Part shown: positions 4,715 to 64,000 of the stretch, one piece after another | Numbering within the stretch: the first letter of the stretch is position 1 | Layout: each line of letters starts with the position of its first letter | DNA from: an uncultured Ignavibacteriales bacterium | GTDB lineage: Bacteria > Zixibacteria > MSB-5A5 > GN15 > FEB-12 | Direction of reading: 5' to 3' | DNA length: 64,000 nucleotides | Assembly: GCA_964526835.1 (NCBI GenBank) | Contig: CAZGMK010000003.1 | Coordinates: forward strand, 83,436-147,435 | Made by a program: the position numbers and the translations under genes | The notes under the pieces: generated by a model | What the model was told of the DNA's origin: nothing | Seen by the model: the letters and a program-made list of their open reading frames with translations, nothing else | The model's database searches: none

Positions 4715-6289
4715 ATGGAAGATCACATTCTGACATTGATTACATTCTTCCCGACCCTCGGGGCCGCCCTGCTGCTGCTCGTTCCGAAGCAGCAACACGA
4801 CAGCATACGCTCGATCAGCCTGATCGTGGCTTTTGTGACGATGCTGCTGTCGTTTCTGCTGTGGGGAATGTTCGATCCGTTGGCCAGCGGTATGCAGTTC
4901 GAAGTCAACACTGCCTGGATCAGCAGCTTCGGCATAAGCTATCATCTCGGCATAGACGGCATCTCGTTGCTGCTCATCATACTGACTTCGATTCTCACGG
5001 TCATTTGCATCATCTTCTCCTGGAAGTCTATCACCGACGGGGTAAAGGGGTTCTTCATCTCGATGCTTCTGCTCGAGACCGGTATGATCGGAGTCTTCTG
5101 CGCGCTCGATCTGTTCATGTTCTATGTTTTCTGGGAAGTGATGCTTGTCCCGATGTACTTCATCATCGGAGTGTGGGGCGGACCTCGCCGAATCTATGCC
5201 GCCATCAAGTTCGTGCTGTTTACAATGTTCGGGTCCCTGCTGATGCTGGTCGCCGTGCTGTGGGTCCTCTTCGAGTATCAGAAATTCGCCGGTGTCTACA
5301 CCTTCGACATGATGAAGCTGGCCGAAATGCCGATCGACTACCAGGCGCAAATATGGCTATTCGGCGCCTTCGCGCTCGCCTTTGCCATCAAGGTGCCTCT
5401 CTGGCCTCTGCATACCTGGCTCCCCGATGCTCATGTTCAGGCGCCGACAGCCGGCTCGGTCATACTGGCGGGGGTGCTGCTGAAAATGGGCACGTACGGC
5501 TTCCTTCGTATATGCCTGCCGATGTTCCCCGATGCCAGTGTTGCGGCGGTACCGCTGATCGGCGTGCTGTCGATAATCGCGATCATTTACGGCGCCCTGG
5601 TGGCTATGGTCCAGAAAGATGTCAAGTCGCTGGTGGCTTTCTCTTCGGTTTCCCACATGGGATTCTGTATGCTGGGCATGTTCGCGCTCAACACTCAAGG
5701 CCTCCAGGGTTCGGTCATGCAGATGATCAACCACGGAGTATCGACAGGGGCGCTCTTTCTTGTGGTAGGTATGATCTACGATCGCAGGCACACGAGAATG
5801 ATCAGCGAGTTCGGCGGGATCGCCAAGGTGATGCCGTTCTACTCGGCGGTGTTCATGATAGTGATGTTGTCGTCGATCGGCCTGCCGTTCACCAACGGCT
5901 TCGTCGGCGAGTTCCTGGTGCTGTTGGGCGTTTTCAAGGCGAATGCGGTCTTCGGTGTACTGGCGGCGTCGGGTGTGATTCTGGCCGCCTGTTACATGCT
6001 CTGGATGTACCAGCGCGTGATATTCGGCAAGCTAACGAATCCGGCCAACGAGAAACTTACCGATATCAACCTGCGCGAGAAACTTACGGTCGTGCCGCTG
6101 GTGCTGCTGATTTTCTGGATCGGTATCTACCCGAAGCCGCTATTGGATCGTATTGAGCCGGCGGTTCGTGGAATCCTGCAGCAAATGACTAAAGCGCATA
6201 CGGTTCAAATCGATCCGGATCGCGGCGTGATAAAACCCGTGGACAGCGATACCTGGACTATCGAGTCGCTGGTCGATAGAGGCAAGTGA
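4715..6289 (+). CDS. nuoM: NADH-quinone oxidoreductase subunit M
   Basis: 524 aa with PLWPLHTWLPDAHVQAPTAGSVILAGVLLKMGTYG, an ND4-type motif. Confidence 0.95.
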   Translation: MEDHILTLITFFPTLGAALLLLVPKQQHDSIRSISLIVAFVTMLLSFLLWGMFDPLASGMQFEVNTAWISSFGISYHLGIDGISLLLIILTSILTVICIIFSWKSITDGVKGFFISMLLLETGMIGVFCALDLFMFYVFWEVMLVPMYFIIGVWGGPRRIYAAIKFVLFTMFGSLLMLVAVLWVLFEYQKFAGVYTFDMMKLAEMPIDYQAQIWLFGAFALAFAIKVPLWPLHTWLPDAHVQAPTAGSVILAGVLLKMGTYGFLRICLPMFPDASVAAVPLIGVLSIIAIIYGALVAMVQKDVKSLVAFSSVSHMGFCMLGMFALNTQGLQGSVMQMINHGVSTGALFLVVGMIYDRRHTRMISEFGGIAKVMPFYSAVFMIVMLSSIGLPFTNGFVGEFLVLLGVFKANAVFGVLAASGVILAACYMLWMYQRVIFGKLTNPANEKLTDINLREKLTVVPLVLLIFWIGIYPKPLLDRIEPAVRGILQQMTKAHTVQIDPDRGVIKPVDSDTWTIESLVDRGK

Positions 6290-6291
6290 CA

Positions 6292-6513
6292 ATGGCTGAT
6301 GTGATTATATATACCAAGGCGGGCTGTCCGTACTGCGCGGCGGCGAAAAAGCACTATGCGGAAAACGGTGTGGCCTACGATGAGGTCGACATTCACAATA
6401 CGCCGGGGGCCAGGGACAAGGTCATTGAACTGACCGACGGTGAACGGATTGTTCCGGTGATCCTGGACCGCGGTGAATTGAAAATCGGATTCGGTGGCGG
6501 ATGAGGGTTTTAG
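6292..6513 (+). CDS. Glutaredoxin-like protein, candidate selenoprotein (TGA 6502-6504 read as Sec; ...GFGGG-U-G-F-stop)
   Basis: Grx fold with CPYC near the N-terminus (MADVIIYTKAGCPYCAAAKK..). The conventional ORF stops at TGA 6502-6504, but the frame continues GGG TTT TAG. A hairpin follows 11 nt after the TGA. An alternative GTG start at 6286 overlaps the nuoM stop (GTGA). If the TGA is a plain stop, the end is 6504. Confidence 0.6.
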
Positions 6514-6547: not shown

Positions 6548-7996
6548 ATGATAGACTTCACTTCGGCATCTATAGACTTCGGCATGCTGGCGCCCGAAAT
6601 CGCGCTGATAGCAGCCGCATTCGTCATTCTTCTGACATCGTCTCTGCGATCGGTTTCGCGCTTGGCCCCGGTCTTTGCTCTCATCGGACTGGCTGTCTCG
6701 CTCTTCCTTGCGGTTGGGCAATGGGGAAATCAGGCATCCGGCTTCTTCGGGATGGTTACCTGCGATGACTACGGGACGGCCTTCAAAGTCATCTTCGCAG
6801 TGATCTCCATCATCACGCTTTTTATCGCTCACCGCTATCTTGCGGTAAAGGGGATAAACCGGGCCGAGTTCTACGCCCTGTTGCTTATATCGACCATGGG
6901 CATGATGGTCATGGCTAACAGCACGGACCTGGTCGTTATGTTCCTCGGGCTCGAGATAATGTCGGTGCCCCTCTATGTCATGGCCGCATTCGCCCGCAGG
7001 TCGCTCATATCGAACGAAGCAGGCCTGAAGTACTTTGTCATGGGCGCCTTCGCCAGCGGCTTCCTGCTGATGGGTATAACTCTGGTCTTCGGCGCTTCAG
7101 AAACCACTGACCTGCGCCGTCTGGTGGCCGATTTCAGCTACATAATGGCCAGTAACCGTGAGCTGCTCTATGCCGGGTCCGCCCTCATGCTGGTTGGATT
7201 CTGCTTCAAGGTCGCCGCGGTTCCCTTCCATACATGGGTGCCCGATGTGTATCAGGGTGCGCCCACGCCGGTAACGGCCTTCTTCTCGGCCGGGCCTAAG
7301 GCGGCAGGATTCGCTGTCATGCTTCGCATATTCTTGTTTGGCCTGGAGCAGGTCGATATTCTTTCGACAACCTTCTGGGTCCTTGCGGTACTAACCATGA
7401 CAGTGGGTAACGTATTGGCGCTCCGACAGGATAACGTCAAGCGCATGCTTGCCTATTCGTCGATCGCCCACGCAGGCTATATCTTGATAGCCCTGGCGGT
7501 AGGAGGTTCGGAGGCCATTTCCGCAGCCATCTTCTATCTGGTGGGCTACGCCATGTTCAACCTGGGTGGCTTTGCGGTGATAACCCTGCTCGAGACTCGA
7601 TCGGGATGTCGATCCGACTTCAGTGAACTCTCCGGGCTGTCCAGGGCCAACCCTTACCTGGCCGGGGTCCTTGCGCTGTTCATGTTTGCGCTCTCTGGTT
7701 TCCCCCCGACGGTCGGATTCTTCGGTAAGTTCTATATCTTTTCGGCCGCTGTTAAGGCCGGATTCATCTGGCTGGCCATAATCGGCGTCCTGAATTCATT
7801 CGTTTCGGTCTATTACTATCTTCGGGTGGTCAAGGCAGCTTATCTTGACCAGAGCGAGTCAGCATTCATTCCGGTCACTTATTCGACGAGCATTGTCCTG
7901 GCGCTCATCATAACCGCTGCTGGTACGATGGGATTGGGTCTCTGGCCGCAGCATTTTCTGAAGCTATCGCAGCAGGCACTATTCGCCTTCCTGTAG
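6548..7996 (+). CDS. nuoN: NADH-quinone oxidoreductase subunit N
   Basis: 482 aa ND2-like protein with AAVPFHTWVPDVYQGAPTPVTAFFSAGPKAAGF. Confidence 0.95.
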   Translation: MIDFTSASIDFGMLAPEIALIAAAFVILLTSSLRSVSRLAPVFALIGLAVSLFLAVGQWGNQASGFFGMVTCDDYGTAFKVIFAVISIITLFIAHRYLAVKGINRAEFYALLLISTMGMMVMANSTDLVVMFLGLEIMSVPLYVMAAFARRSLISNEAGLKYFVMGAFASGFLLMGITLVFGASETTDLRRLVADFSYIMASNRELLYAGSALMLVGFCFKVAAVPFHTWVPDVYQGAPTPVTAFFSAGPKAAGFAVMLRIFLFGLEQVDILSTTFWVLAVLTMTVGNVLALRQDNVKRMLAYSSIAHAGYILIALAVGGSEAISAAIFYLVGYAMFNLGGFAVITLLETRSGCRSDFSELSGLSRANPYLAGVLALFMFALSGFPPTVGFFGKFYIFSAAVKAGFIWLAIIGVLNSFVSVYYYLRVVKAAYLDQSESAFIPVTYSTSIVLALIITAAGTMGLGLWPQHFLKLSQQALFAFL

Positions 7997-8277: not shown

Positions 8278-8487
8278 CTATAGCATGCGGAAGTAGTAAC
8301 AGGGTTGGGGGCCACCCTGGAACATGTAGCTGACCAGGTAGACCAGATCGGCAATATCGATATCGCCGATGCAGTTGACATTGGCCGACTCGTAGGGGAC
8401 AGGCGGCGGGCCGCCCTGAAACATGAAAGTGACCAGGTAGACCAGATCCGCAATGTCCACGCCTCCGCCGGAACCATCGACATCGCC
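8278..8487 (-). repeat. Twin dockerin-like (EF-hand type) repeat module at the protease C-terminus
   Basis: GDVDGSGGGVDIADLVYLVTFMFQGGPPP ... GDIDIADLVYLVSYMFQGGPQP. DNA cores at 8321-8350 and 8420-8449 are near-identical to cores at 62889-62918 and 62990-63019. Confidence 0.65.
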
Positions 8488-11013
8488 GGCCACCACCCAC
8501 TCGCGATCGGTGAAGTAGAAGCGAACCGCTTCTCCCGGCCCGACGACGTGTTCGGGGATGTCGCCCGCATTGACGTAACTCAAGCCTTTGCAGCCGTCAC
8601 TCGCCACGCCTATCAGGCAGTTGTCCTCGAGTCCGCTGACCCCGAGGTCGGCGTACTGGAAAACAATGGATCCGTCGACTGTCAGAATCGCTTCAAAGTT
8701 CAAGGTGGTATCGCTCGGGTCGTTGAAGCTGCCCGGATGGTACCATTGAATGACCAGGGTGTCGTATTGCGGATCATTCCACCTGTAAATGCCGCCGTCA
8801 GGCACCGCTATCGTATCGAATATCAGATCTGTCCAGAAAGGAGCGATGATGGTGTTGAACGGCGCCCCAGGTATGTCGATGCCGCTGAAGTAGCCGTTGA
8901 CGTTCAGACTCGTGTCGGTGAACGACAGCCCACCGTTGACACCGATGTAGACGCGGTTGAAGGTGGTGTCGTAGAATGGAAACTTGAACCCGATATTGAA
9001 AGGGCCGACGCTTCCGTCGTCGAGCTTGTTGGTGGCGCCGCCGTGATAGAAATTGTCGAAACTGATCCTGGTTCCGAGGGTCCGGGCGTCGATCCAGCTA
9101 TACTCCGGCCCCCCTGAGTCTCCCGTCTTCCCGGCGGAGTAGGTTGAGTCGCTGCAGGGCACGGTCAGATACACGGGGAGCCACAACGTGGCATCGAGGC
9201 TGCCGCCCGAGGCCCCCCAGTTGACTTCGACAATACCTCGATATCGCTCGACTTGCTCCACCAGGACAGTGGCGTCGATCGTGACCGATAAGAGCATCGA
9301 ATCTGCCGCGCCGATTGTGCCGCTCGCCGGTGCGACGCTAAGCCAGTCGACAACCTTGACCAGGCTGTCGCTGTCGGTGGCCGTGAAATCAATCGCCTGC
9401 GAGCCGGAGCGGTTCCTGAGCCAAATGCCGATGTCGAGGATAGTGCTCTGATCGACCATCGTATCAATGAGGACAGGTTCGGCATAGAGCGATGGTGGCG
9501 ACTCAAGCTGGGCGATCGCCGCTTGCAGATCGGGGCGGGGCCCGATGTGTTCGGATGAATCACCCTGCTGGGGGCTGCCGGTGGCTACCAGGGCATCGCG
9601 TATCATATCGGAAGTCATGGATATGCCGTAAGTCTCCTGGTGGTATCCTTGCAGGCAGGCGGCGGCGCCGGTGACAATCGGGGAGGCGGAGGAAGTTCCG
9701 CTGAAGAACGCCGTATAGTACTGATTGCGATCGCCGTCGCCGTCAAACAAGTTGCCGTAGCCACAGGTATAGACTCCCGATCCATAGCCCTGCATGTTAA
9801 CTCGTTCGCCATAATTCGAGAAGCTCTGGCGCTGCCGGTCCTGTCCTGAGGCGGGTGGGTATCCTGCACCGACGATAATCGCGTGTGAGTTCCTATAGGT
9901 CGTGTCGAAGAGCGACTCATAGAGTGGATCGTCGAAGTCCTCGGCGCCGTTTCCAGCCGCCTGTACAACTACAATCCCATTCGCCCAGGCATAGAGAATG
10001 GCGTCATAGTTGGCCTGCCAGTACTCCATACAGACATAGCCGAGCTGGTCCGGGCGGGACTGAAAGTTGTATCGCGGGCCGGGAGCGTGCAGTTCTATCA
10101 GAATCAGGTCGCCGGATTCGAGGTTATCGATGGCGCTGTACAGGGCCTGGGCGGTCGACTGGTAGGCCACCGACACCATCCCGATGTCCGCACCAGGACA
10201 TATACCCGTCACTCCGTAGCCATTGTCCCCCGCGATCATCTGGCCGATCACCGCTGTTCCGTGATCCGACGTTGACCCGCCACCTGGATATGGGCCGATG
10301 ACGTTCCCGACAGCCTTTCCCAGGTCCTCGTGGGTAGTCTGCCAGTTTATTTCGATATCGACTATCTTGACGCCGGTCCCATCGCCGCCGGCCAGGGTAT
10401 TGGCGTAATCGGCGTCAATCCCCTCGGGCGCCGCCTCGCGGTAATCCTGATACTCCTGATAGTCGGGCGTCGGAGGGTATATGTCCCCGGCCTCCTCCGG
10501 GAGCGGCTGCACATAGGCGATCTCGACCACGTCCAGAGCATTGAGCTGGTTTACCAGCGCCTGTGCCTTATTGGGTTCGCTGATCTCAATTTCGTAGTAT
10601 GTGTTGAGGTCGGCCAGTTCCTGCCCCGAGGCAGCCTGCAGCCTCCTGCGGTCCGCATTCAGACGGTCCTCACTCCAGCCTGCGAACAAACGTTCGACGC
10701 GCCCGGCAGTGTAGGGTTCAAGCACTTGCCTGACGTCCTCCAGCGAAGTCGACGGAGATACAAGCCTGCCACTGCGAAGTCGGGTCTGGGTCTCATCACG
10801 GAATTTGACAACCACATGTGAGATTCGAGTCCCGGCGTCGATCACGGCCCGGGCTGGTTTCTCGGGTAGTGTTCGCTGTCGGAGATAGTGATGGCTTCGG
10901 TCGGACCGTTCCAAGCCGAGTCCAGACACAGCCCATGCGGCTACCGCAGTTAGCAGCACCAGCATGCCTGTCAGGGCAACAGCCCGAAAATCATGATTCC
11001 GATCGGCCTTCAT
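8278..11013 (-). CDS. Secreted subtilisin-like (S8) serine peptidase with C-terminal twin dockerin-like repeats
   Basis: N-terminal signal/TM segment. Catalytic motifs are DHGTAVIG (His), VQAAGNG (Asn) and SGTSSASPIVTGAAACL (Ser). A beta-rich middle region follows, and the tail carries two D-x-D-G/DIADLVYLV-x-[FY]MFQGGP repeats. Confidence 0.85.
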   Translation of the reverse strand: MKADRNHDFRAVALTGMLVLLTAVAAWAVSGLGLERSDRSHHYLRQRTLPEKPARAVIDAGTRISHVVVKFRDETQTRLRSGRLVSPSTSLEDVRQVLEPYTAGRVERLFAGWSEDRLNADRRRLQAASGQELADLNTYYEIEISEPNKAQALVNQLNALDVVEIAYVQPLPEEAGDIYPPTPDYQEYQDYREAAPEGIDADYANTLAGGDGTGVKIVDIEINWQTTHEDLGKAVGNVIGPYPGGGSTSDHGTAVIGQMIAGDNGYGVTGICPGADIGMVSVAYQSTAQALYSAIDNLESGDLILIELHAPGPRYNFQSRPDQLGYVCMEYWQANYDAILYAWANGIVVVQAAGNGAEDFDDPLYESLFDTTYRNSHAIIVGAGYPPASGQDRQRQSFSNYGERVNMQGYGSGVYTCGYGNLFDGDGDRNQYYTAFFSGTSSASPIVTGAAACLQGYHQETYGISMTSDMIRDALVATGSPQQGDSSEHIGPRPDLQAAIAQLESPPSLYAEPVLIDTMVDQSTILDIGIWLRNRSGSQAIDFTATDSDSLVKVVDWLSVAPASGTIGAADSMLLSVTIDATVLVEQVERYRGIVEVNWGASGGSLDATLWLPVYLTVPCSDSTYSAGKTGDSGGPEYSWIDARTLGTRISFDNFYHGGATNKLDDGSVGPFNIGFKFPFYDTTFNRVYIGVNGGLSFTDTSLNVNGYFSGIDIPGAPFNTIIAPFWTDLIFDTIAVPDGGIYRWNDPQYDTLVIQWYHPGSFNDPSDTTLNFEAILTVDGSIVFQYADLGVSGLEDNCLIGVASDGCKGLSYVNAGDIPEHVVGPGEAVRFYFTDREWVVAGDVDGSGGGVDIADLVYLVTFMFQGGPPPVPYESANVNCIGDIDIADLVYLVSYMFQGGPQPCYYFRML

Positions 11014-48123: not shown

Positions 48124-51100
48124 CTACGGCTTGACTACCAGCTTGCCTTTCTCATCGGAACCTCGCAGATACCAGAAGTAGACTCCGGGAGACACCACGT
48201 GGCCGTTACCGTTGTGGCCGTCCCATTGCCATTCCCCCGATACACCATCACGAATCAGCACTGTCTGACCGCTTACCGTCTGAATCAGTATATCGACCGG
48301 ATCATTGGGAAGACGGAAGGTAACCGGCCCTTCGGAAAGGCTCACCGGGTTTGGGTAAGCGTAGACACCGTCTGAGATTGTAAACGAGGCCACCCTGGAG
48401 TAGTCATAGTTATCTGCGCGGGCCCGCCAGTAGTACGCACGTCCGGCCTCCAGCGGCGTCGGCGCCTGCCATGATGTGGTCGGGCCGTCCTGCCGGCTCG
48501 TTGATCCGGAGGCAGCGCTCGTCATGAATGAAGAGTCGGTGCTGACTTCGAAGAAGTACTCATGGCTTCCCGGCTCGGCGATGTTCTCTATGGTTAGCGT
48601 GGGGCGACGGGAGACTACTGACTGGCTGACCGGGGAGACCGGAACAGGCACGTAGTCGTCGACGTCGGTGGCGAAACTGAAATAGCGGAAACTCCAGGCG
48701 GAGGACGGATCGCTCCAGTCTTGCTGGTCATTGGCTACAACATGCCAGTAGTAGAGTTGGTTGTTGATCGGCAGGAAAGTGGTGAAGAAATCTGCGCTGG
48801 TGGTCCCTCCTGCTCCCGTGCTCGTAGCGTGCCTGTGTTCCACGAGTTGAGTCATGGCGGCATCGGAGTAGACGTAGAAATCGTAATAGACATCATCGCC
48901 ATCAGGGTCGGCTGCGTTGATGACTGTGACCGTGATTGGTGTGTCCGTGACGGTTTCCCCGTCGGCCGGCGACAAGTGATCGGGCGGGGGCGGCGCCTGG
49001 TTGGTGGCCAGGCTCACGGTAAATGACCTCCCGGCGGAATAGCCGGAATAGGTAATTCCGTCATACACTCGTGAGCGCCAGTAGTACGTCGCCTCGTTCA
49101 ACGACTCCGAGCACTGCCAGGAGTTACTGCTTGTTGCGCCGGATAGCACCAATGAGGAGAACGAGGGGGAATTGGCGACCTCGAAGTGATAGGTTACAGG
49201 GGTTCCGTCCGGATCTGTGACTGTGCCGACAGTGAGGGTTGGGCGTCGCGTATCAACGGTGGCGCCGTTGACCGGCGATGATGGTGAGGGTGTTGGTGGT
49301 GCTGTGTTTGGAGTATGGAAAGAGAATGGCCCCGCCCATCCGGAGTAGCTGGTTCCGTTGTAGGCCCGGGCCTGCCAGTAGTAAATTGATCCCGTGCTCA
49401 GAGCCGGAACCACCGTAGCACAACTCGTGCCTGCCCCTTCAGCCGTTGAGATCGGTCCGGCCACGAGCTCGGTCAGAGACTCGTCCGAATACACCGAGAA
49501 CTGATAGGTCTGATCCTCTGTACATCCGGGCGCAGGAGTGCTGTTGACAACACAGAGCTGCGGCTGTACCGAAGCGACACCTGTTCCCTCGGGTGGAGAG
49601 GACAACTCCGGAACTGATGGAGGCGTGGCGCAGTAGTCAGTGTAGTCAACCTGGAAACTGCTCAGCGAAGTCCAGGCGCTGTAGTTGATGCCGTCATAAC
49701 ATCGCGCTCGCCAGCTATAGGTGGCGCCGTCAGAGAGGACAATCGGGACTTGCCAGCCAGTGGTTGAGCCTGCCCCCTCTGGGGTTGTTCCTGAGCTCGC
49801 CAGCAGGTTTGTCCCCGGTCCATCGTACAACTCGAAGAAGTATGTGAGGGCATCACCATCGGGATCGTCACCGTTCTGGACTACCAGATAGACAGTCGAA
49901 TCGGTGACTGTGCCGCCAGGGCCGGGTTCAACTATGGTCGTGAGCGACGGCGGGTTGTTGGATTCGATCTGAACGGTAAATTGACAGGGTGTGCAATACG
50001 ATGAAATGTCGATTCCGTCGTCGGTTCGGGCCCGCCAGTAGTAGGTGTCGTTGTCAAGAGGCGTTCCAATCGCCCAGTCGGTGTCATCGAACTGCTCGCG
50101 GGAAGCCACTAACGAGGAGAAGTTCGAATAGCGCGAGACTTCAAAGCGATACAAGACTGGTGTGCCGTCGGGGTCTGTCACGCCGCCGACCTCGAAGGTG
50201 GGTTGGCTTTCATCAATCTGACTACCGTCAGCGGGCGCCACCGGAGTGGGAACCGCAGGGGCCTGGTTGGGTGTGTGGAACTTGTATGGCCCCATCCAAG
50301 CGGAGTAGCTGGTCCCGTTGTAGACCCTTGTTCGCCACCAGTACCACCGTCCCGATTCGAGCGATGAGCTGACGGTGTAGCAACTCTGCGACGCCCCTTC
50401 CGCCGCGATGCCGGGCCCATGAACCAACTGTGACAGGGTGCTGTCGGAATACACTTCGAAATGATAGGTTTGGTCATCCGTGCATCCTGCGGCCGGGGTG
50501 GAATTGTGGACACATAAAGTCGGCTGCGTCGTTGCGACGCCCGATCCGTGATCCGGTGAAGCGAGAGTGGGAGGGCTTGACGGCACGGCGCAATCATTGC
50601 CGTCGGCGGCCGAGCGGTAGATACCGGCGCGGCCGTTTTCGAAGCTCTCGGTGGCCTGGGATGCTCCCCACGCGCCGTTATGGCTCAGCTTCTGCCAGGG
50701 GCCGTCCAGTAGCTCGAAGGTCGGCGAGTGCGAACCAGCCCATTGGTTTTGCTGCTGCCCGGCCGGACGCAGGAGGACCATATACCGGTAGCCGTCGTCA
50801 CCGGTCCAGGTTCTCCGGAAAATAACCCAATTCTGGCCGAAGGAGTCCTTGCCCTGGCCTTCAGTGATGACGCAATCATCGCAATCCACCGAGGCGACGT
50901 ACCACTCCACCTGGTCGGTGTCCCAGGCCGGGTCGTTGCCGTCACGGCCCACTCGGACCCCCAGTGCGTCAATCCAGTAACAACTGTCGCCAGGCGTGCC
51001 GGCCGCCACACACATGCCGTCGCTGCCGCCGCCGTCCAGCCAGTTCAGGACGCCCAGGCGGTTCTCGGGGACATTGGCGAAGGAGATGTAGGTCGTGCGG

Positions 51101-52242
51101 GCTCGGGTTAGATAATAGAGGGCCAGGCAGTCGTACCAGTAGATCCGAAAGGGATACTCAAGATAGCCGTGGCCTGGATTGAACCAGTTCTCGACGCCCT
51201 CCTGAGAGCAGTCGACCAGTCCCTGATATATCGACACCGGGCTGTAGTCGGCCGCCACCGTGGCGGTGTTGATCGAGGAAACACTGTTAGTCGGGCCTGG
51301 ATAAAGCAACTGCTGGTTGTGATCGTGAGGCGAAAGACCGAATTCAAACTCTCGGTGAACGGGTTTGACCAGGCTGCCGTCAAAATACTCCGGCTGATAA
51401 CCGGCCGCGTAGCTATCCTTGTCGCCGTACGCCCAGGCCAGGGCGTTAATGCAGACATCAATGCCGAGTCGATTCTTGAGGCTGTCGGCCAGTATGGAGG
51501 TATACTTGATCAGCACAGTATCTTTGAATGCCTGTTGCCACTCGGAGATCGTCCAGGCACCGTATTGGGCCGTCGGTCCCCCCAGAGCTGGTTCATGGAT
51601 GTGACGCCCGGGCGTGCTTGTGGAGACGCCCACGGTCTGCGGAATGCTCATGTTATCGAACCACAGGCCGGAGACACTGTACATGCGGCCGCTGTGACGG
51701 TTGACGATCATTTCCGCATAGTCCACGAAGTGATGCAGGAAGTTCAGGTTGGTGTTGTTGATCAAAGCTCGGGTGCCGTTGTAGGTCAGCAACCTCGAAT
51801 CGTATTCACTCGTCGAATAGGCCGAGTACGCCCCGAAGCTCGTCGGCGTGTAATCATGGGAGTGCCAGTACATTGAGGTTGAGTCCTCGCCGTCAGCCTC
51901 CATTCTGGGGCCAACCCACTCGTTCACCGGCGGCAGCCCGGCACACGAGTAGTAAGGATCGTTGAAGTTGTGGTATACGTAGAACCTCAACTGGGGGTCC
52001 AGGGCATACAACTCGTTGTATTTCGATACGTAGCCCGAACCGTAAGATCCATCGGCTACCAGGACCTCGTAACGACCGGCGATTATGGAGTCCACCTGGC
52101 TGGACATCGGGACCGTGCCGTAATCGAAATTGAAGTAGTTTACGCTGGGAGTGAGGTCTTCAGCCCCGGCTATCCCGGTCCAAGCAACCGTAACCAGGAC
52201 CGATATCATGATCAACGAGATTCGTCTACTGTGTCTTTGCAT
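48124..52242 (-). CDS. 1372-aa secreted surface protein: unknown 553-aa N-domain, 7 FN3-like modules, T9SS/FlgD-Ig-like C-terminal domain
   Basis: Signal peptide MQRHSRRISLIMISVLVTVAWTGIAGA. Tandem modules each end in a ..YYWR.R..DG...S.....F.. pattern. The tail is ..WQWDGHNGNGHVVSPGVYFWYLRGSDEKGKLVVKP. Confidence 0.85.
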   Translation of the reverse strand: MQRHSRRISLIMISVLVTVAWTGIAGAEDLTPSVNYFNFDYGTVPMSSQVDSIIAGRYEVLVADGSYGSGYVSKYNELYALDPQLRFYVYHNFNDPYYSCAGLPPVNEWVGPRMEADGEDSTSMYWHSHDYTPTSFGAYSAYSTSEYDSRLLTYNGTRALINNTNLNFLHHFVDYAEMIVNRHSGRMYSVSGLWFDNMSIPQTVGVSTSTPGRHIHEPALGGPTAQYGAWTISEWQQAFKDTVLIKYTSILADSLKNRLGIDVCINALAWAYGDKDSYAAGYQPEYFDGSLVKPVHREFEFGLSPHDHNQQLLYPGPTNSVSSINTATVAADYSPVSIYQGLVDCSQEGVENWFNPGHGYLEYPFRIYWYDCLALYYLTRARTTYISFANVPENRLGVLNWLDGGGSDGMCVAAGTPGDSCYWIDALGVRVGRDGNDPAWDTDQVEWYVASVDCDDCVITEGQGKDSFGQNWVIFRRTWTGDDGYRYMVLLRPAGQQQNQWAGSHSPTFELLDGPWQKLSHNGAWGASQATESFENGRAGIYRSAADGNDCAVPSSPPTLASPDHGSGVATTQPTLCVHNSTPAAGCTDDQTYHFEVYSDSTLSQLVHGPGIAAEGASQSCYTVSSSLESGRWYWWRTRVYNGTSYSAWMGPYKFHTPNQAPAVPTPVAPADGSQIDESQPTFEVGGVTDPDGTPVLYRFEVSRYSNFSSLVASREQFDDTDWAIGTPLDNDTYYWRARTDDGIDISSYCTPCQFTVQIESNNPPSLTTIVEPGPGGTVTDSTVYLVVQNGDDPDGDALTYFFELYDGPGTNLLASSGTTPEGAGSTTGWQVPIVLSDGATYSWRARCYDGINYSAWTSLSSFQVDYTDYCATPPSVPELSSPPEGTGVASVQPQLCVVNSTPAPGCTEDQTYQFSVYSDESLTELVAGPISTAEGAGTSCATVVPALSTGSIYYWQARAYNGTSYSGWAGPFSFHTPNTAPPTPSPSSPVNGATVDTRRPTLTVGTVTDPDGTPVTYHFEVANSPSFSSLVLSGATSSNSWQCSESLNEATYYWRSRVYDGITYSGYSAGRSFTVSLATNQAPPPPDHLSPADGETVTDTPITVTVINAADPDGDDVYYDFYVYSDAAMTQLVEHRHATSTGAGGTTSADFFTTFLPINNQLYYWHVVANDQQDWSDPSSAWSFRYFSFATDVDDYVPVPVSPVSQSVVSRRPTLTIENIAEPGSHEYFFEVSTDSSFMTSAASGSTSRQDGPTTSWQAPTPLEAGRAYYWRARADNYDYSRVASFTISDGVYAYPNPVSLSEGPVTFRLPNDPVDILIQTVSGQTVLIRDGVSGEWQWDGHNGNGHVVSPGVYFWYLRGSDEKGKLVVKP
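48379..50583 (-). repeat. Seven tandem ~105-aa FN3-like coding modules arranged (A-B-C)x2 plus B
   Basis: Modules 1 and 4 share ..NSTPA.GCT.DQTY.F.VYSD..L..LV.GP....EGA..SC..V...L..G..Y.W..R.YNGTSYS.W.GP..FHTPN. Modules 2, 5 and 7 share the core PT..VG.VTDPDGTPV.Y.FEV, degenerate in module 7 (PTLTIENIAEPGSHEYFFEV). Modules 3 and 6 share ..DPDGD..Y.F..Y... Confidence 0.8.
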
Positions 52243-52484: not shown

Positions 52485-53651
52485 TCAACCTTCGACCCGT
52501 CTCGATTCCGAGAGAGAGCCTGACTTCTCTCTGGCCAGTTGTTCATACAGTCCTGTCAGCCGCTCAAGAGTCACCTCCCAGCGGAAGCGTTGCCGGATTG
52601 CCTCACCACCGGCCCGACCGATGTCGTTGCGGAGCTGCTCGTTTACAATGTATTTTCTCACGCCGGCCAGGAAGTCCTCGGCATCATCCGGCCGATAGAG
52701 GTGGCCCAGCGCCGGCGAGTTGATCAATTCGCTGTTACCCCCGACGGCAGACGCCACCGGAGGACGGCCCGTCGCCATATACTCCATTAGTGAGTTAGAG
52801 AGGCTCTCTCCCTTAGAACATAGCACGGCAATGTCAAATCCATAGAGATCGGCGCCTACTGTTTTCGATCTGCCGGGCAGCGAGACACGATCCCGAAGAC
52901 CCAGCTCGTCGATCATGCGCTGAAGCTTCTCCCTCTGATCGCCTTCTCCGATGATGACAAAGCGCGCTTGCTCGTACTCTTGTGCAAGTGTGGCGGCGCA
53001 CCGAATGAAGAAGGGCAGGTTCTTGATCGGCCGCAGGTTGGCGACGGTCCCAATGACGATATGGTGCGGCTGGAAGCCCCAGCGTCGTCGCGTCTCCGCA
53101 ATGGCCGTAGCATCGGGCCGGCGATAGTCATCGGGGTCGATTCCGTTCGGAATTACCGATACCTGCGCTCGGTTCAACTTTTCAACTTCGATGGCCTCTT
53201 CAGCCGCTGCCGTCGAGTTTGCGACATAGTGGTCGGTCTTCCCGCGCAGCCACCGCAGGACAGCGATCTCCGCACGATTGTGCCAGTAGCCTGCACCCAG
53301 ATTGCGACGGCTCGCAATTACCACCGGCGTCCCCGCCGCCCGCGCCCAGAGTGTCCCGATCAGATTCGCGTCATGGAAGAATGTCTGCACAATGTCAATG
53401 CGATTCTCCCGGCAGAAGGTTCGAAACTCGCGTCGGCCTCGGAAGTAGTCCAGGCTTCGAAACGAGCGAAAGCGGATGATGGCTGAGGGCGCCTCAAGTC
53501 TGGTCGACGCCCACCAATCGCTCTCTCGGAGACACACCACGTGCGGCTGCACCCGCGATCTGTCGATCCGGCCGATTGTGTGCAGCAGTTGCCGTTCTGT
53601 CCCGGCGTACGGAGAGCTTATGGTGTCAATAACATAGGCAACATTAATCAT
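52485..53651 (-). CDS. Glycosyltransferase, GT4 (GT-B) family
   Basis: ATGA-coupled start MINVAYVIDT. C-terminal ..GESLSNSLMEYMATGRPPVASAVGGN.. (E-x7-E type). The longer ORF to 53825 is read-through of the upstream gene. Confidence 0.8.
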   Translation of the reverse strand: MINVAYVIDTISSPYAGTERQLLHTIGRIDRSRVQPHVVCLRESDWWASTRLEAPSAIIRFRSFRSLDYFRGRREFRTFCRENRIDIVQTFFHDANLIGTLWARAAGTPVVIASRRNLGAGYWHNRAEIAVLRWLRGKTDHYVANSTAAAEEAIEVEKLNRAQVSVIPNGIDPDDYRRPDATAIAETRRRWGFQPHHIVIGTVANLRPIKNLPFFIRCAATLAQEYEQARFVIIGEGDQREKLQRMIDELGLRDRVSLPGRSKTVGADLYGFDIAVLCSKGESLSNSLMEYMATGRPPVASAVGGNSELINSPALGHLYRPDDAEDFLAGVRKYIVNEQLRNDIGRAGGEAIRQRFRWEVTLERLTGLYEQLAREKSGSLSESRRVEG

Positions 53652-54754
53652 GATAACACCAGGCGATAGACCTTGGTCAGTTCTTCGGCTTGCCTTTCGA
53701 ACGAGAAGCGCTTTCCGACCACATCCGCAGCGGCCCTGGCCAACCTCTGGCGCAGGTCCGGATCCTGAGCTACTCCGGTCATGGCGCCGGACATCGCGAC
53801 CTGATCGCCATACGGGACCAGCCACCCACTTACTCCGTCCTCAATCAGTTCCGGTACTCCGCCGACGTCGGTGGCTACCACCGGCAGGCCAACAGCCATG
53901 GCTTCCAGGACGATATTGGGCAGGCCCTCGGATCGGGAGGGATTAGCCAGGATATCGGCGCCCTTGAGACAGCCGATCAGATTGTGCTCGTAGCCGGGGC
54001 AGCGTACGTACTCACTCAGCCCATGTTCGTGAATCCAGCGAGCCATTCCCGGCCGATCCGGACCCTCGCCAAAGAGCACCAGGCGGAGTCGTCCTTCCCG
54101 AGCGATCGCATTTGTGAAGGCCCTGACCAGGAACCGCTGTCCTTTCTCCCGGCTGAACCGTCCGGCGGCCACGGCCACGATCGACTCGTTCGGCAAATCA
54201 AGCTGTGCGCGGATATCCACTGGGTCAGCATCGGCAAAGGCCTCGGGATCGATACTGTTGTAAATGACTGATAGTTTCCTCGACGGCACACCCCAGCGAC
54301 GCAGGTACTCGGCCTGGGCGCGCGACACTGCCACCACCCGGTTGGCGAAACGCATCAGAATGCGATCAACCAGTTGGAAAGCCCGGACTTTGGCGTTCTC
54401 CTGAGTGAATCCGCGAGCGAAGCATATGTGGGCGGCGCCGGTGCGGGTCCTGACCACGTGACCCAGAATATGGCTGCGGTAGTCATGGGTGCATATGATC
54501 CCGACATGGTTGCTCCTGATGTATTCAATGAGCCCTGTCAGCGCCGCCGGATCGTACGCCGAACGAACAGATAGAGCAGCAGTTTCTACGTTACTGTTGC
54601 GCGCCCTGTCGAGCAGCGCCGGACGAACACCGTCTTCGGTGAAGGACCCGATCAGGACCTCGTATTCACTGCCTCTCAGCAGCTCAGCGTGGCGCAGCAG
54701 CTGGCGTTCGGGCCCGCCGAAGAAATTCGAGGCGCGCAGGTGAAGGATCTTCAT
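53648..54754 (-). CDS. Glycosyltransferase, GT4 family
   Basis: ATGA-coupled start MKILHLRASNFFGGPE. ..SRSEGLPNIVLEAMAVGLPVVATDVGG... Confidence 0.85.
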   Translation of the reverse strand: MKILHLRASNFFGGPERQLLRHAELLRGSEYEVLIGSFTEDGVRPALLDRARNSNVETAALSVRSAYDPAALTGLIEYIRSNHVGIICTHDYRSHILGHVVRTRTGAAHICFARGFTQENAKVRAFQLVDRILMRFANRVVAVSRAQAEYLRRWGVPSRKLSVIYNSIDPEAFADADPVDIRAQLDLPNESIVAVAAGRFSREKGQRFLVRAFTNAIAREGRLRLVLFGEGPDRPGMARWIHEHGLSEYVRCPGYEHNLIGCLKGADILANPSRSEGLPNIVLEAMAVGLPVVATDVGGVPELIEDGVSGWLVPYGDQVAMSGAMTGVAQDPDLRQRLARAAADVVGKRFSFERQAEELTKVYRLVLS

Positions 54755-55956
54755 GAAATGCCCACCGAACGATGGAGGAACCGATCTAGCTTGTTGACCA
54801 GGGCCGGCCATCCGTAGCGCTGCTCGACGAGACGTCGCCCGGCCTGTCCCATAGTCTTCGCCTTCTCCCGGTCGCTCAAGACAGCTCCGACGGCCTCGAC
54901 CCAATCTTCGGGCTCGTCGGCAATCAGAAGGTGTTCGTTGACCCGCAAGTCGAGCCCTTCCGCGCCGACGGTAGTGGAGATTACCGGCTTGCGCATCGCC
55001 AGGGCTTCAAGAATCTTCAGACGCGATCCTCCACCGACTCGCAAGGGCACTACGTAGATGGAAGCCTTGTTGATGTATGGTCGGACATCGTCGACCGTTC
55101 CGGTAACCGTTACGCCTTCGACCTTCTCGAGATCACGAACCGAGACGGACGGGTTCCTGCCGACGATAGTGAACGAGATTCCCGAATACTGCTCTCGCAG
55201 GAGGGGGAGAACTCGTCGAACGAAGAATATGGCCGCGTCCTGGTTCGGTCGCCAGTCCATAGAGCCGGTGAATACGAGCCCTGATGCATTCAACCCACCT
55301 GAGTCGTCGTCGGAGCGGAAGTAGTCCAGGTCTACGCCGTTGTCGATGACCTCGACCGGAAGCCGATGGTTATAGCCCCGAATGGTTTCCGCATCGGACT
55401 CCGAAACCGCCGTAGCCGCCTCGACGGCGCCGAAGACCTTGCGCTCGAATCGCTCCATTTTCACTGCCTGAGAGGCGAGGTAGGCTCGACGGAACCGGCT
55501 GCTCTGGGCGCTCGCGTAGCGAACCCATATCTGTGCTTCGATATTGTGCGATGCGACTATTCTTCGAATGTCAGTCCGGTCCAGCACATAGCGTGCATAC
55601 GGCGTCCATTCGCACAGGACCAGATCATAGTTCTCCTTCTGCAGCAACTCCTGTATGGCTCGCTTGAACTCGGGCCGAAAGTGGTTGTCAACGCTGTAGG
55701 GATAGGGCGAGAAGATATTCTTCGCCAAGCGGAAGTAGAAGCCGATTCCCGACTTGGCCGGTAGTTCGACTTCGACGGGGATCGGGTTCATCCTCTGCTC
55801 GGATAGCTCTGCGAACCCATCTGATTCACGGCGGCCGAAGGCCAGGTACGTCAGGTCGTGACGATGGGCCAGCCCGGCATGCAGGTGGTAGCTGCGAATG
55901 CGCTTGCCGGTGTTGAGCGGCCAGGGGTATTCTTCATCTATGACCAGAATCTTCAT
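54751..55956 (-). CDS. Glycosyltransferase, GT4 family
   Basis: MKILVIDEEYPWPLNTGKRIR.. and ..GGGSRLKILEALAMRKPVISTTVGAEG... ATGA overlap with the upstream gene. Confidence 0.85.
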   Translation of the reverse strand: MKILVIDEEYPWPLNTGKRIRSYHLHAGLAHRHDLTYLAFGRRESDGFAELSEQRMNPIPVEVELPAKSGIGFYFRLAKNIFSPYPYSVDNHFRPEFKRAIQELLQKENYDLVLCEWTPYARYVLDRTDIRRIVASHNIEAQIWVRYASAQSSRFRRAYLASQAVKMERFERKVFGAVEAATAVSESDAETIRGYNHRLPVEVIDNGVDLDYFRSDDDSGGLNASGLVFTGSMDWRPNQDAAIFFVRRVLPLLREQYSGISFTIVGRNPSVSVRDLEKVEGVTVTGTVDDVRPYINKASIYVVPLRVGGGSRLKILEALAMRKPVISTTVGAEGLDLRVNEHLLIADEPEDWVEAVGAVLSDREKAKTMGQAGRRLVEQRYGWPALVNKLDRFLHRSVGIS

Positions 55957-57308: not shown

Positions 57309-57311
57309 AGT

Positions 57312-60814: not shown

Positions 60815-60830
60815 ATTTCCCTTACCGGCG

Positions 60831-62853: not shown

Positions 62854-63057
62854 CTACGGACACTCCGCCGGTGCGGGGCCGCCCGAGAACATGTAGCTGA
62901 CCAGATACACCAGATCGGAAACGTCGGGACCGGTCCAGTCGCCGTTCATATCTGACTCGCCCGCACACGGGGGGAGTGGCCCGCCGGCAAACATGTAGCT
63001 GACCATATACACCAGATCCGATATGTCCGGGCCGACACCGTCGTGATTCGCATCTCC
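62854..63057 (-). repeat. Twin dockerin-like repeat module (second occurrence)
   Basis: GDANHDGVGPDISDLVYMVSYMFAGGPLPPC ... DMNGDWTGPDVSDLVYLVSYMFSGGPAPAEC. DNA cores at 62889-62918 and 62990-63019 match those at 8321-8350 and 8420-8449. Confidence 0.65.
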
Positions 63058-64000
63058 ACGAAGATCGCAGCATGCGTAGAAGCACGGATAGGGACTGCAA
63101 CCGGTACCGTCGCCCACGAAGATGTTGCCGAAGTTCTCACACTCCCATCTGGACCGCACGTAGCAGCCCATGGCGCTATCGCAGCAAGCCCCGGTGGCCA
63201 CGGTGTCACAGTCAAGGCCGGCACAGGTGGAGCTGCCCAGCAGTCCTCCCTCAGCCTCATGGCAGTTCGCCGGCGCCAGCACCAGGCAACTGTCCGGGGA
63301 TGCGCCGCAGCAGGCATAACGGAGGGTATCCGGGCTGCAAACGGTCGGTACCGGGTATTCATCGAAGACCCCGAGGCCGGACTCGAAATAGTCGAGGTAT
63401 TTCTGAACGTCGAGAGCATCGAGATAACCATCACCGTTGAGGTCACCTTCCGAAGGCACTGCCATCGGTGGGCCGCCGAGATTCACAAAGCTGTTGAGAT
63501 ACGCCAGATCCGTCGCATTAAGGGGAATGCCATCATCGTTACAGTCACCGGTCGCAAAGCACTGTTGACCTCCGAAGTGGATCTCGTACATCATCACCCA
63601 CCAGGCTTTGCCTTTTTGATAGCAGTTGAAACAGTGGGAGTGAGCGCAGCCGCCGCAGGACGGGCAGGAATACAAAGCACACCAATCGTAGCACCACTCG
63701 CAGGCATCGGAGGCGTCCGGATAATAGACGCCGTCAGGATCATAGCTTTCAATATCGGCGAAGTCGAAGAGGACCTTGTCGTTGTCGAGGCAATACTGCC
63801 GAATCTGGTCGTTACGGGCGTACAGGTTGCCGCCGACTCCGGTCCCGTCGAGATGCCCGGTCATGTATACAAACGCGCGATCGGGATATTGCGCCTCCAG
63901 TTCCGACATCTTGTTCAAGTATATGTTTATCCCCTCCTCGGTGTTATCCGAACATCCTCCACACCAGGAGAACATGACCATATTGTAGTCTGGATTGGCA
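62854..64000 (-). CDS. Secreted Cys-rich protein with internal and C-terminal dockerin-like repeats (5' end outside window)
   Basis: The frame stays open past the first Met to the window edge (..ANPDYNMVMFSWCGGCS..). Cys-dense block CEWCYDWCALYSCPSCGGCAHSHCFNCY. Internal GDCNDDG../GDLNGDGYLD pair. C-terminal twin DISDLVYMVSYMFAGGP / DVSDLVYLVSYMFSGGP. Confidence 0.7.
   Translation of the reverse strand, partial: ANPDYNMVMFSWCGGCSDNTEEGINIYLNKMSELEAQYPDRAFVYMTGHLDGTGVGGNLYARNDQIRQYCLDNDKVLFDFADIESYDPDGVYYPDASDACEWCYDWCALYSCPSCGGCAHSHCFNCYQKGKAWWVMMYEIHFGGQQCFATGDCNDDGIPLNATDLAYLNSFVNLGGPPMAVPSEGDLNGDGYLDALDVQKYLDYFESGLGVFDEYPVPTVCSPDTLRYACCGASPDSCLVLAPANCHEAEGGLLGSSTCAGLDCDTVATGACCDSAMGCYVRSRWECENFGNIFVGDGTGCSPYPCFYACCDLRGDANHDGVGPDISDLVYMVSYMFAGGPLPPCAGESDMNGDWTGPDVSDLVYLVSYMFSGGPAPAECP

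Follow-up and report, generated by a model that had tools for sequence, protein, structure and literature searches.

A tandem pair of D-x-D-x-D-G calcium loops, each followed by a helix, is the architecture of type I dockerins, which bind cohesins in cellulosomes. The cellulosomal representatives (PF00404; C. thermocellum and Ruminococcus flavefaciens; PDB chains 2ccl_B, 4fl4_A and 5lxv_B) are ~70 residues long, show internal two-fold similarity and are usually located at the C-terminus of secreted enzymes. Here we describe a related module that forms the tails of two proteins encoded in a 64,000-nucleotide stretch of contig CAZGMK010000003.1 (assembly GCA_964526835.1), hereafter the window. 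The contig belongs to an uncultured bacterium labelled Ignavibacteriales and placed in Zixibacteria. One of the two proteins is a secreted protease of the S8 (subtilase) family, the other a secreted Cys-rich protein.

Dockerins and cohesins are well known outside cellulosomes, according to papers that cite Peer et al. 2009 (PMC9012536, PMC8542988). Examples include Archaeoglobus fulgidus (cohesin 2xdh) and the ANME archaea, in which the pairs stand outside cellulose degradation and some proteins contain both one dockerin and cohesins; archaeal cohesin-dockerin pairs have been shown to bind, according to work cited in PMC9012536. In Candidatus Stygibacter, a member of Cloacimonadota, a cellulosome-like complex was proposed from genomic inference (Williams et al. 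2021; PMC8542988). Its enzymes are GH18, GH57, S8 and C25 proteins with signal peptides and C-terminal dockerins. Its scaffoldin is a 3,755-aa protein with tandem cohesins recognisable by InterProScan, carbohydrate-binding modules and a C-terminal domain (CTD) of the type IX secretion system (T9SS) (PMC8542988).

Two further devices are relevant for comparison. Gram-positive anchoring scaffoldins, such as SdbA of C. thermocellum with its type II cohesin (2bm3), place a cohesin next to a C-terminal surface anchor made of SLH domains. The T9SS type A sorting domain (TIGR04183 / PF18962) is a beta-sandwich of ~75-100 aa that serves as a C-terminal tag on secreted peptidases and adhesins.

In this study, we compared the two tails with sequence and structure libraries, collected their relatives from genomes and metagenomes, and searched these relatives for a possible binding partner. 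By sequence and predicted structure, both tails are genuine dockerin-fold modules in which each helix is capped by GGPxP. We lean slightly towards the view that they are part of a T9SS-anchored cohesin-dockerin surface-display system, used mainly for proteases, in which they would bind a putative cohesin-fold module designated X. A similar system was already proposed for Cloacimonadota in 2021; what is new here is the dockerin subtype, the cryptic cohesin-fold candidate X, the lineage and the carriers. A search of a literature library returned no paper linking dockerins with Zixibacteria and no mention of 'GC-type dockerin', and the two papers that named both dockerin and Latescibacteria were fungal-microbiome surveys.

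Sequence and predicted fold of the tails

The first-pass annotation of this DNA had noticed the same duplicated tail on the S8 protease and the Cys-rich protein, and the ends of the two open reading frames (ORFs), VVAGDVDGSGGGVDIADLVYLVTFMFQGGPPPVPYESANVNCIGDIDIADLVYLVSYMFQGGPQPCYYFRML and CCDLRGDANHDGVGPDISDLVYMVSYMFAGGPLPPCAGESDMNGDWTGPDVSDLVYLVSYMFSGGPAPAECP, each directly before the stop codon, agree with it. The module consists of a calcium-type loop and the stretch DLVYLVxYMFxGGPxP, and is present twice in each tail. A six-frame regular-expression scan of the whole window detected exactly four occurrences of the helix motif, all within the two tails. Each tail is organized as two tandem segments of ~22 residues, with a calcium-type loop preceding a helix. 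Of the ligand positions of a 12-residue EF-hand-like loop (1, 3, 5, 9 and 12, with D, N or S), Asp or Asn occupies positions 1, 3, 9 and 12 in all four loops, and the two halves of a tail are identical at 15-16 of 19 core residues.

The assignment to dockerins, which the first-pass annotation had suggested from the duplicated loop and helix, is supported by several comparisons. In a phmmer search of PDB sequences, the best match was a Ruminococcus flavefaciens dockerin (5lxv_B, E 1.4e-4), followed by further dockerins; in the alignment to 5lxv_B, loop 1 of the S8 tail has a one-residue insertion relative to the 12-residue loop. An AlphaFold2 (AF2) model of the S8 tail, based on 36 homologues, had a mean predicted local distance difference test score (pLDDT) of 93.1 and a predicted template modelling score (pTM) of 0.80. 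Its helices, at residues 18-29 and 51-63, each follow a loop; the model also contains a short linker helix, and its N- and C-terminal strands are paired. When this model was searched against the PDB with Foldseek, the top 33 matches were all dockerins, with template modelling (TM) scores of 0.56-0.73 and root-mean-square deviations of 1.6-3.2 Å; the match probability was ~1, and 0.66 at the lowest rank. A more classical loop pair had also been pointed out further inside the Cys-rich protein. This internal dockerin is present and is the sole part that Pfam calls Dockerin_1 (24.3 bits), and it aligned with the tail-family profile in hhalign at 96.5% probability (E 9.7e-10).

The tails thus resemble cellulosomal type I dockerins in their length, duplicated loop and helix, predicted fold, detectable sequence homology, internal two-fold similarity and usual C-terminal location on secreted enzymes. 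They differ from them in the GGPxP cap after each helix, a conserved terminal Cys and often additional Cys residues, loops that commonly have 13 residues, near-invariant helix residues, and scores below the Pfam threshold. Their carriers are mostly peptidases and adhesin-like proteins instead of glycoside hydrolases, and their hosts are uncultured diderm bacteria.

At least 90% of family sequences keep the terminal Cys. In tandem arrays it recurs at the end of every unit, which argues that it is part of the domain and not a terminal processing site. In addition to the paired strands, the termini are probably clasped by a disulfide that involves this last Cys.

The relationship between the two genes was also assessed at the DNA level. 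When up to three mismatches are allowed, the window contains the 27-nt core CATGTAGCTGACCAGGTAGACCAGATC at four places (8323, 8422, 62890 and 62992), against 0.00 expected from shuffled sequences, and the tail repeat is therefore real and not a product of chance. The first-pass annotation had described these cores as near-identical and had placed the third of them one base off. The four non-random cores do exist, but over the 57 nt that code for D[IV][AS]DLVY[LM]VxxMFxGGPxP, pairs share 41-46 of 57 bases (72-81%), and 'near-identical' was an overstatement.

Such cores might be taken as the trace of a recent duplication, a gene conversion or a mobile cassette that copied the tail from one gene to the other. 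The four 27-nt matches, with none expected by chance, are what speaks for this view, but other observations oppose it. The 72-81% identity over 57 nt is low for recent copies, and between-gene core pairs are no more similar than within-gene pairs, the repeats inside each gene being 86% and 76% identical. At positions with the same residue in the 57-nt cores, 7-10 codons are shared, barely above the 6-7 expected from the codon usage of the window. Synonymous-site identity is not well above the codon-usage expectation, long identical flanking DNA was not seen, and the tail is already present in orthologues from distant metagenome-assembled genomes (MAGs). We give recent copying almost no credence: the DNA likeness of the cores is explained by conservation of the peptide together with codon bias, and not by recent DNA exchange.

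Hosts and carriers of the tail family

A profile search of the tail family against 1.84 billion cluster representatives (50% identity) matched 39,478 representatives at E<=1e-3, 14,140 at E<=1e-10 and 266 at E<=1e-30. The first of these sets must take in ordinary dockerins; the stricter sets would require scores reachable only by the GGPxP subtype or by multiple copies. The tail had earlier been thought lineage-specific, a suggestion that does not survive the 14,140 representatives at E<=1e-10. Named sources include Zixibacteria, Calditrichaeota, Ignavibacteriales-labelled MAGs and Parcubacteria, and the closest named relatives, both of the tail and of the cassette proteins described below, belong to candidate division Zixibacteria, which suggests an origin of the window in this phylum or near to it.

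In contigs from one genome per species, the exact peptide pattern DLVYLVxYM had 382 confirmed sites, of which the best 79 loci were used for the counts that follow. These loci fall into 15 MAGs, with up to 12 loci per MAG, i.e., several carriers per genome. The MAGs are labelled Zixiibacteriota, 'bacterium', Ignavibacteriales, Calditrichaeota and Thermoplasmatota. The Thermoplasmatota-labelled MAG, JAUWIE01, has seven carrier loci (L006, L022, L030, L045, L066, L072 and L074); either this bin is mislabelled or contaminated, or the dockerin subtype also occurs in archaea.

Among the 150 top cluster representatives, the module forms the C-terminal end in 100, and others show 3-12 matched stretches. 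The 79 loci contain 113 carrier ORFs; 110 have a stop codon, and 95 of these end within 12 aa of the module. A crude heuristic detected a signal-peptide-like start in 81 of 109 carriers, 22 of the 109 being cut by locus edges. The Pfam families on the 76 full-length carriers include PKD (9), Peptidase_S8 (8), TSP_3 (8), Peptidase_C25 (6), DUF7901 (5) and FG-GAP (4), as well as C10 (2), C1 and M28 peptidases, and no glycoside hydrolase is found among their 25 most frequent Pfam families. Dockerin_1 itself was reached by 12 of the 76. The subfamily occurs mainly at the extreme C-terminus of Sec-exported proteins, chiefly peptidases and adhesin-like ones, and its hosts are Zixibacteria-type bacteria together with other uncultured groups.

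Other copies of the module are internal, are arrayed in tandem or precede a T9SS sorting domain. These locations identify it as a domain and not as a terminal sorting peptide. Of the earlier proposal of an anchoring or sorting module for exoproteins, a tag for exported proteins fits the counts, the module being terminal in most carriers, but a sorting module in the sense of a terminal peptide does not. The known T9SS type A sorting domain is likewise a C-terminal tag on secreted peptidases and adhesins in the same lineages; it differs in being a beta-sandwich, whereas the tail is a helical calcium-loop module of ~70 aa. The two can share one protein, and then in a fixed order.

Some members of the family have unusual arrangements. 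P0046 (720 aa) and P0047 (1187 aa; Parcubacteria MBI4122260.1, annotated as 'peptidoglycan-binding protein') consist almost wholly of 9-12 tandem Cys-bracketed dockerin-like units. At L027, L050, L069 and L084-L092 the module comes right after the signal peptide: small proteins of 276-289 aa continue with a DUF3108-like domain, and in proteins of ~1068 aa a first dockerin, at aa 30-93, is joined by another in the terminal cassette.

The two window proteins themselves have relatives with the same tail. The exact S8 protein is also present on Logan/NCBI contigs, and orthologues of 906-909 aa with the same tail occur in four MAGs. Their identity to the window protein is 60-79% in the catalytic domain, 53-67% in the tail and 39-61% in the middle region; the loop Cys and the terminal Cys of the tail are kept in all five orthologues. 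The tail is accordingly not confined to two proteins and unconserved in related genomes, an outcome that the first-pass annotation had considered. At least three of the orthologue genes adjoin a NuoL-like gene, and the S8 gene of the window likewise lies beside a nuo operon. The subtype found in the Cys-rich tail recurs in Zixibacteria proteins, e.g., P0162 and P0170.

Neither the NCBIfam nor the Pfam library that we searched has a stand-alone model of the tail. Two NCBIfam models touch it. Among 36 tail relatives, 18 matched NF045500, a full-length model named 'Omp28-related selenoprotein', over its final ~55 positions (best E 2.9e-18), which indicates that this selenoprotein family ends in the same tail. 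Three of the 36 weakly matched NF041540, the related but distinct model 'GC-type dockerin domain-anchored protein' (cut-off 29 bits; best E 0.0085), and P0052 scored 20.5 bits. The two window proteins matched neither NF041540 nor NF045500, and the matches of the relatives were local and far below the whole-protein cut-offs.

A candidate partner and the possible role of the tails

The absence of a cohesin from the window, remarked upon in the first-pass annotation, was confirmed: Pfam detects none among 32 window proteins, and two cohesin-type hidden Markov models (HMMs) built here had no match in the window or in 8 kb beyond it. A cohesin-like protein or a cell-surface polymer had been envisaged there as the receptor. 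The window offers no such cohesin, but relatives encode T9SS-anchored proteins in which a cohesin-fold candidate adjoins this dockerin variant. Carriers with a non-terminal dockerin have a recurrent extension of ~215 residues, which consists of a ~115-aa module, X, with the motifs LRG(I/L)QLEL and VGLLDLDG, followed by a T9SS type A sorting domain (Por_Secre_tail). The order dockerin, X, T9SS sorting domain was observed in 24 of 24 instances, some of which are redundant: six are genome loci, five cluster representatives and thirteen metagenome ORFs. Each protein has a single X, separated from the dockerin by a gap of 0-13 residues. After X come 88-97 residues, which close with the sorting-domain motif K-x-x-L-x-K. 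The cassette dockerins are of the same subtype as the free tails.

The relatives of X were gathered by local HMM searches of related loci and cluster representatives; a word-indexed protein search, with a single sequence and with a profile, detected one fragment, P0196. The cassette is present in Zixibacteria protein MDH3889891.1, annotated just as 'T9SS type A sorting domain-containing protein', and in the S8 peptidase MFH1688343.1. One MAG, JAJRQO01, has both an orthologue of the S8-dockerin protein (L003) and a dockerin-X-CTD protein (L048).

X had no match to Pfam Cohesin (PF00963, threshold 24.1 bits) at E<=10 and none to PDB sequences. Its link to cohesins comes from more distant comparisons. 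Two members of the same dockerin family, P0166 and P0194, have Pfam-positive cohesins (25.5 and 28.7 bits) after their dockerins, and X aligned with Pfam-positive cohesins in hhalign at 93.7% probability (E 1.9e-7, 64 columns). The P0194 cohesin has the Archaeoglobus cohesin 2xdh as its best PDB sequence match, with a shared VGIxDxxG motif, and 2xdh and X share the motif VG(I/L)xDxxG. The AF2 model of X, based on five sequences, is all-beta (pLDDT 73.7). Its top 35 Foldseek matches in the PDB were all cohesins (types I, II and non-cellulosomal; E down to 7e-5), among them 2bm3 and related anchoring cohesins. On these grounds we regard X, with moderate confidence, as a divergent cohesin-fold module.

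Comparison with the described systems helps to place the cassette. As in Ca. Stygibacter, S8 and C25 peptidases have C-terminal dockerins and a cohesin protein would be attached to the cell via a T9SS CTD, and in both cases the system is deduced from genomes. Unlike in Ca. Stygibacter, the candidate cohesin is invisible to Pfam, is present in a single copy and is always fused to a dockerin, and the dockerin subtype and the lineage differ. The cassette shares with the SLH-anchored scaffoldins a putative cohesin that adjoins a C-terminal surface anchor, and differs from them in that the anchor is a T9SS type A sorting domain and not an SLH domain or sortase signal, and in that a dockerin precedes the cohesin. 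By analogy, the dockerin-X-T9SS cassette may be seen as in effect the diderm counterpart of the SLH-anchored cohesin. The archaeal pairs differ from the tails and X in lineage, carriers and anchoring; moreover, the pairing suggested here derives from sequences and models.

In the surface-display system that we slightly favor, the carrier would be exported by the Sec pathway, and its tail would fold with Ca2+ and form its disulfide in the oxidising extracytoplasmic space. The carrier would then cross the outer membrane, and the tail would dock non-covalently onto X on T9SS-attached surface proteins. As X was seen in relatives only within the dockerin-X-T9SS cassette, type IX secretion would be expected to present it on the outer membrane; its presence in the genome studied here is presumed. 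A bolder version, which we put forward as a tentative possibility, is a 'proteolysome' of Zixibacteria and related uncultured diderms, in which S8, C25 and other peptidases would be kept on the outer membrane by GGPxP Cys-clasped dockerins and X. Such an assembly would rely on one near-universal dockerin surface and one cryptic cohesin family, with dockerin-X-CTD anchors able to chain head-to-tail.

Several observations weigh against the surface-display reading. Both tails remained without a Pfam or NCBIfam call, within the whole proteins and also in isolation at E<=10, and the Dockerin_1 threshold of 22.9 bits was not reached. Three of the four loops have 13 residues instead of 12, and loop 2 of the S8 tail has Ile at ligand position 5; calcium binding by the tails is thus plausible without being assured. 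Over thousands of proteins the helix faces hardly change, unlike the recognition residues of cellulosomal dockerins, which vary. Neither X nor a Pfam cohesin was found in the window or in the 8-10 kb flanks on each side. The case for X is built on a shallow alignment of five sequences and a medium-confidence model, with no direct Pfam or PDB sequence match. In addition, this reading does not account for how a Sec-only carrier gets past the outer membrane to a cohesin at the surface, and X, being always fused after a dockerin, may pair in cis and not receive other proteins.

Other roles for the tail have to be considered in the light of the same data. It could do without a protein partner, as a calcium-dependent stabilising or solubilising module or as a binder of lipopolysaccharide, exopolysaccharide or substrate, with no cohesin needed. 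A near-invariant helix surface is easier to reconcile with one shared non-protein ligand, or with a purely structural role, than with a multitude of specific partners, and the tandem arrays of 9-12 modules, some in Parcubacteria, and the lack of a cohesin in the window are in line with it. Dockerins are moreover widespread, with unclear function, in organisms without cellulosomes, as papers citing Peer et al. 2009 report. Yet in relatives a cohesin-fold module accompanies exactly the GGPxP dockerin subtype, Pfam-positive cohesins stand beside the dockerins of P0166 and P0194, and the experimentally studied dockerins among the PDB matches all bind cohesins. We consider a partner-free tail unlikely, if deserving of attention. 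The constant association of X with an upstream dockerin, together with the lack of a multi-cohesin scaffoldin among the large ORFs without the module in the 633 kb covered by related loci, would fit a structural dyad, in which X binds its own neighboring dockerin in cis and tail-only proteins dock elsewhere or to each other. Against this, the short linkers would make docking on the usual cohesin face geometrically difficult, proteins with both cohesin and dockerin are ordinary scaffoldin architectures, and cassette dockerins and free tails are of one subtype; in our estimate, pairing in cis is improbable.

The tail could also be a C-terminal secretion or sorting signal for the outer membrane, and would then stand beside the T9SS sorting domain as a novel CTD class. 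C25 gingipain-like peptidases use T9SS CTDs in Porphyromonas, and here such peptidases carry the tail. The tail is at the extreme C-terminus of most carriers, paralogous enzyme classes of the organism bear either the tail or a T9SS CTD, and a signal of this kind would account for the passage of the carriers across the outer membrane. What makes this very unlikely in our view is that the module also occurs internally, right after signal peptides, in arrays, and, within single polypeptides, ahead of a T9SS CTD; that it has a dockerin fold and not the beta-sandwich of known CTDs; and that the conserved Cys ends every array unit. Our slight preference accordingly stays with docking of the tails onto X.

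Genomic setting and significance

The window encodes an Omp85-family protein, from which we conclude that the organism is diderm, and its coding features that bear on the tails are listed in Table 1. The first-pass annotation had contrasted the dockerin-like tail with a T9SS-type tail on a 1372-aa protein, and this distinction is well founded: the 1372-aa protein has a beta-rich CTD-like end (14.9 bits against TIGR04183, below the cut-off of 23), whereas the two tails had no match to the T9SS CTD models (TIGR04183 / PF18962) and their predicted structure is helical. Past the right end of the window, at L081:428-6252 (~0.6-6.4 kb beyond), are a second S8 peptidase (1231 aa), which has FG-GAP repeats as well as Por_Secre_tail, and a FlgD_ig/Por_Secre_tail protein of 710 aa. 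With Por_Secre_tail on the 1231-aa subtilase and a dockerin on the 911-aa one, the organism uses two C-terminal devices on its subtilases.

Table 1. Coordinates of the two tails, their carrier genes and related features in the window, with the carriers of the X cassette in relatives
Feature	Position	Strand	Basis
Gene for a 911-aa secreted subtilase (Peptidase_S8) with C-terminal dockerin-fold tail	8278..11013	-	ORF list and Pfam
Predicted Sec signal peptide of the S8 protease, MKADRNHDFRAVALTGMLVLLTAVAAWA	10930..11013	-	Read from sequence: charged n-region, hydrophobic core, AWA motif
Peptidase_S8 catalytic domain, aa 239-479	9577..10299	-	Pfam PF00082, 70.1 bits, E 2.6e-19
Predicted dockerin-fold tail of the S8 protease, aa 840-911 (72 residues)	8281..8496	-	AF2 model, Foldseek, phmmer
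S8 tail segment 1: 13-residue calcium-type loop DVDGSGGGVDIAD, helix LVYLVTFMF, cap QGGPPP	8401..8487	-	Sequence
S8 tail segment 2: loop NVNCIGDIDIAD, helix LVYLVSYMF, cap QGGPQP, conserved terminal Cys	8299..8385	-	Sequence
Last 381 codons of the gene for the secreted Cys-rich protein (489 aa, two dockerins)	62854..64000, continues past window end	-	ORF
Predicted dockerin-fold tail of the Cys-rich protein: CC before loop 1, Cys after first GGPLPP, terminal ...AECP	62857..63078	-	Sequence
Cys-rich tail segment 1, GDANHDGVGPDISDLVYMVSYMFAGGPLPPC	62965..63057	-	
Cys-rich tail segment 2, SDMNGDWTGPDVSDLVYLVSYMFSGGPAPAEC	62860..62955	-	
More classical dockerin inside the Cys-rich protein (GDCNDDG...GDLNGDGYLDALD...)	63385..63549	-	Pfam Dockerin_1 24.3 bits, cut-off 22.9
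T9SS-type C-terminal sorting domain of the 1372-aa protein	48130..48372	-	NCBIfam PorZ C-terminal region, E 1.5e-9
1372-aa protein with Ig_Rha78A_N, PhoD_N and DUF4962 matches	48124-52242	-	
Carriers of the dockerin-X-T9SS cassette in relatives: L020, L033, L036, L040, L048, L051, L082-L093; P0112, P0116, P0142, P0162, P0170			

The Cys-rich gene is complete at L081:6492-7961, on a Logan contig that belongs to the same series of samples, where the protein begins with the signal peptide MSGSISRLAIAISAVIVFNPAAIKGA. Its N-terminal ~230 aa had no Pfam, NCBIfam or PDB sequence match; a Cys-dense stretch, CEWCYDWCALYSCPSCGGCAHSHCFNC, follows this N-terminal domain.

Between the T9SS-tailed protein and the Cys-rich dockerin protein lies an exopolysaccharide or O-antigen-type cluster (52485-62393, minus strand). 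Its members include several GT4 glycosyltransferases, one CapK_C and one Wzy_C polymerase-like protein, a membrane protein of 682 aa that weakly matches the YYY domain, and an ORF of 520 aa that resembles flippases. The left flank of the window contains only the nuo operon and a transporter. Within this operon, a 70-aa glutaredoxin-family gene (6292-6504, plus strand; PF00462 in the gene tables of L001 and L094) is located between NuoM-like (4715-6289) and NuoN-like (6548-7996) genes, an unusual place for a thiol-redox protein.

If the proposed assignment is correct, thousands of exported proteins of uncultured sediment and groundwater bacteria bear a docking tag that routine annotation has missed, since Pfam detects about one in six carriers and NCBIfam lacks a stand-alone model, and the matching cohesin-type module would be wholly hidden from sequence libraries. 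Even if no partner exists, it would be a useful correction to recognise this dockerin subfamily, which is very large and calls for a separate profile. A functional pair would also provide protein engineering with a very conserved, small, disulfide-stabilised docking system. For the organisms themselves, it would extend the cohesin-dockerin principle to outer-membrane display via type IX secretion. Their extracellular proteases would then be tethered to the cell and not released, which would bear on models of organic-matter turnover.

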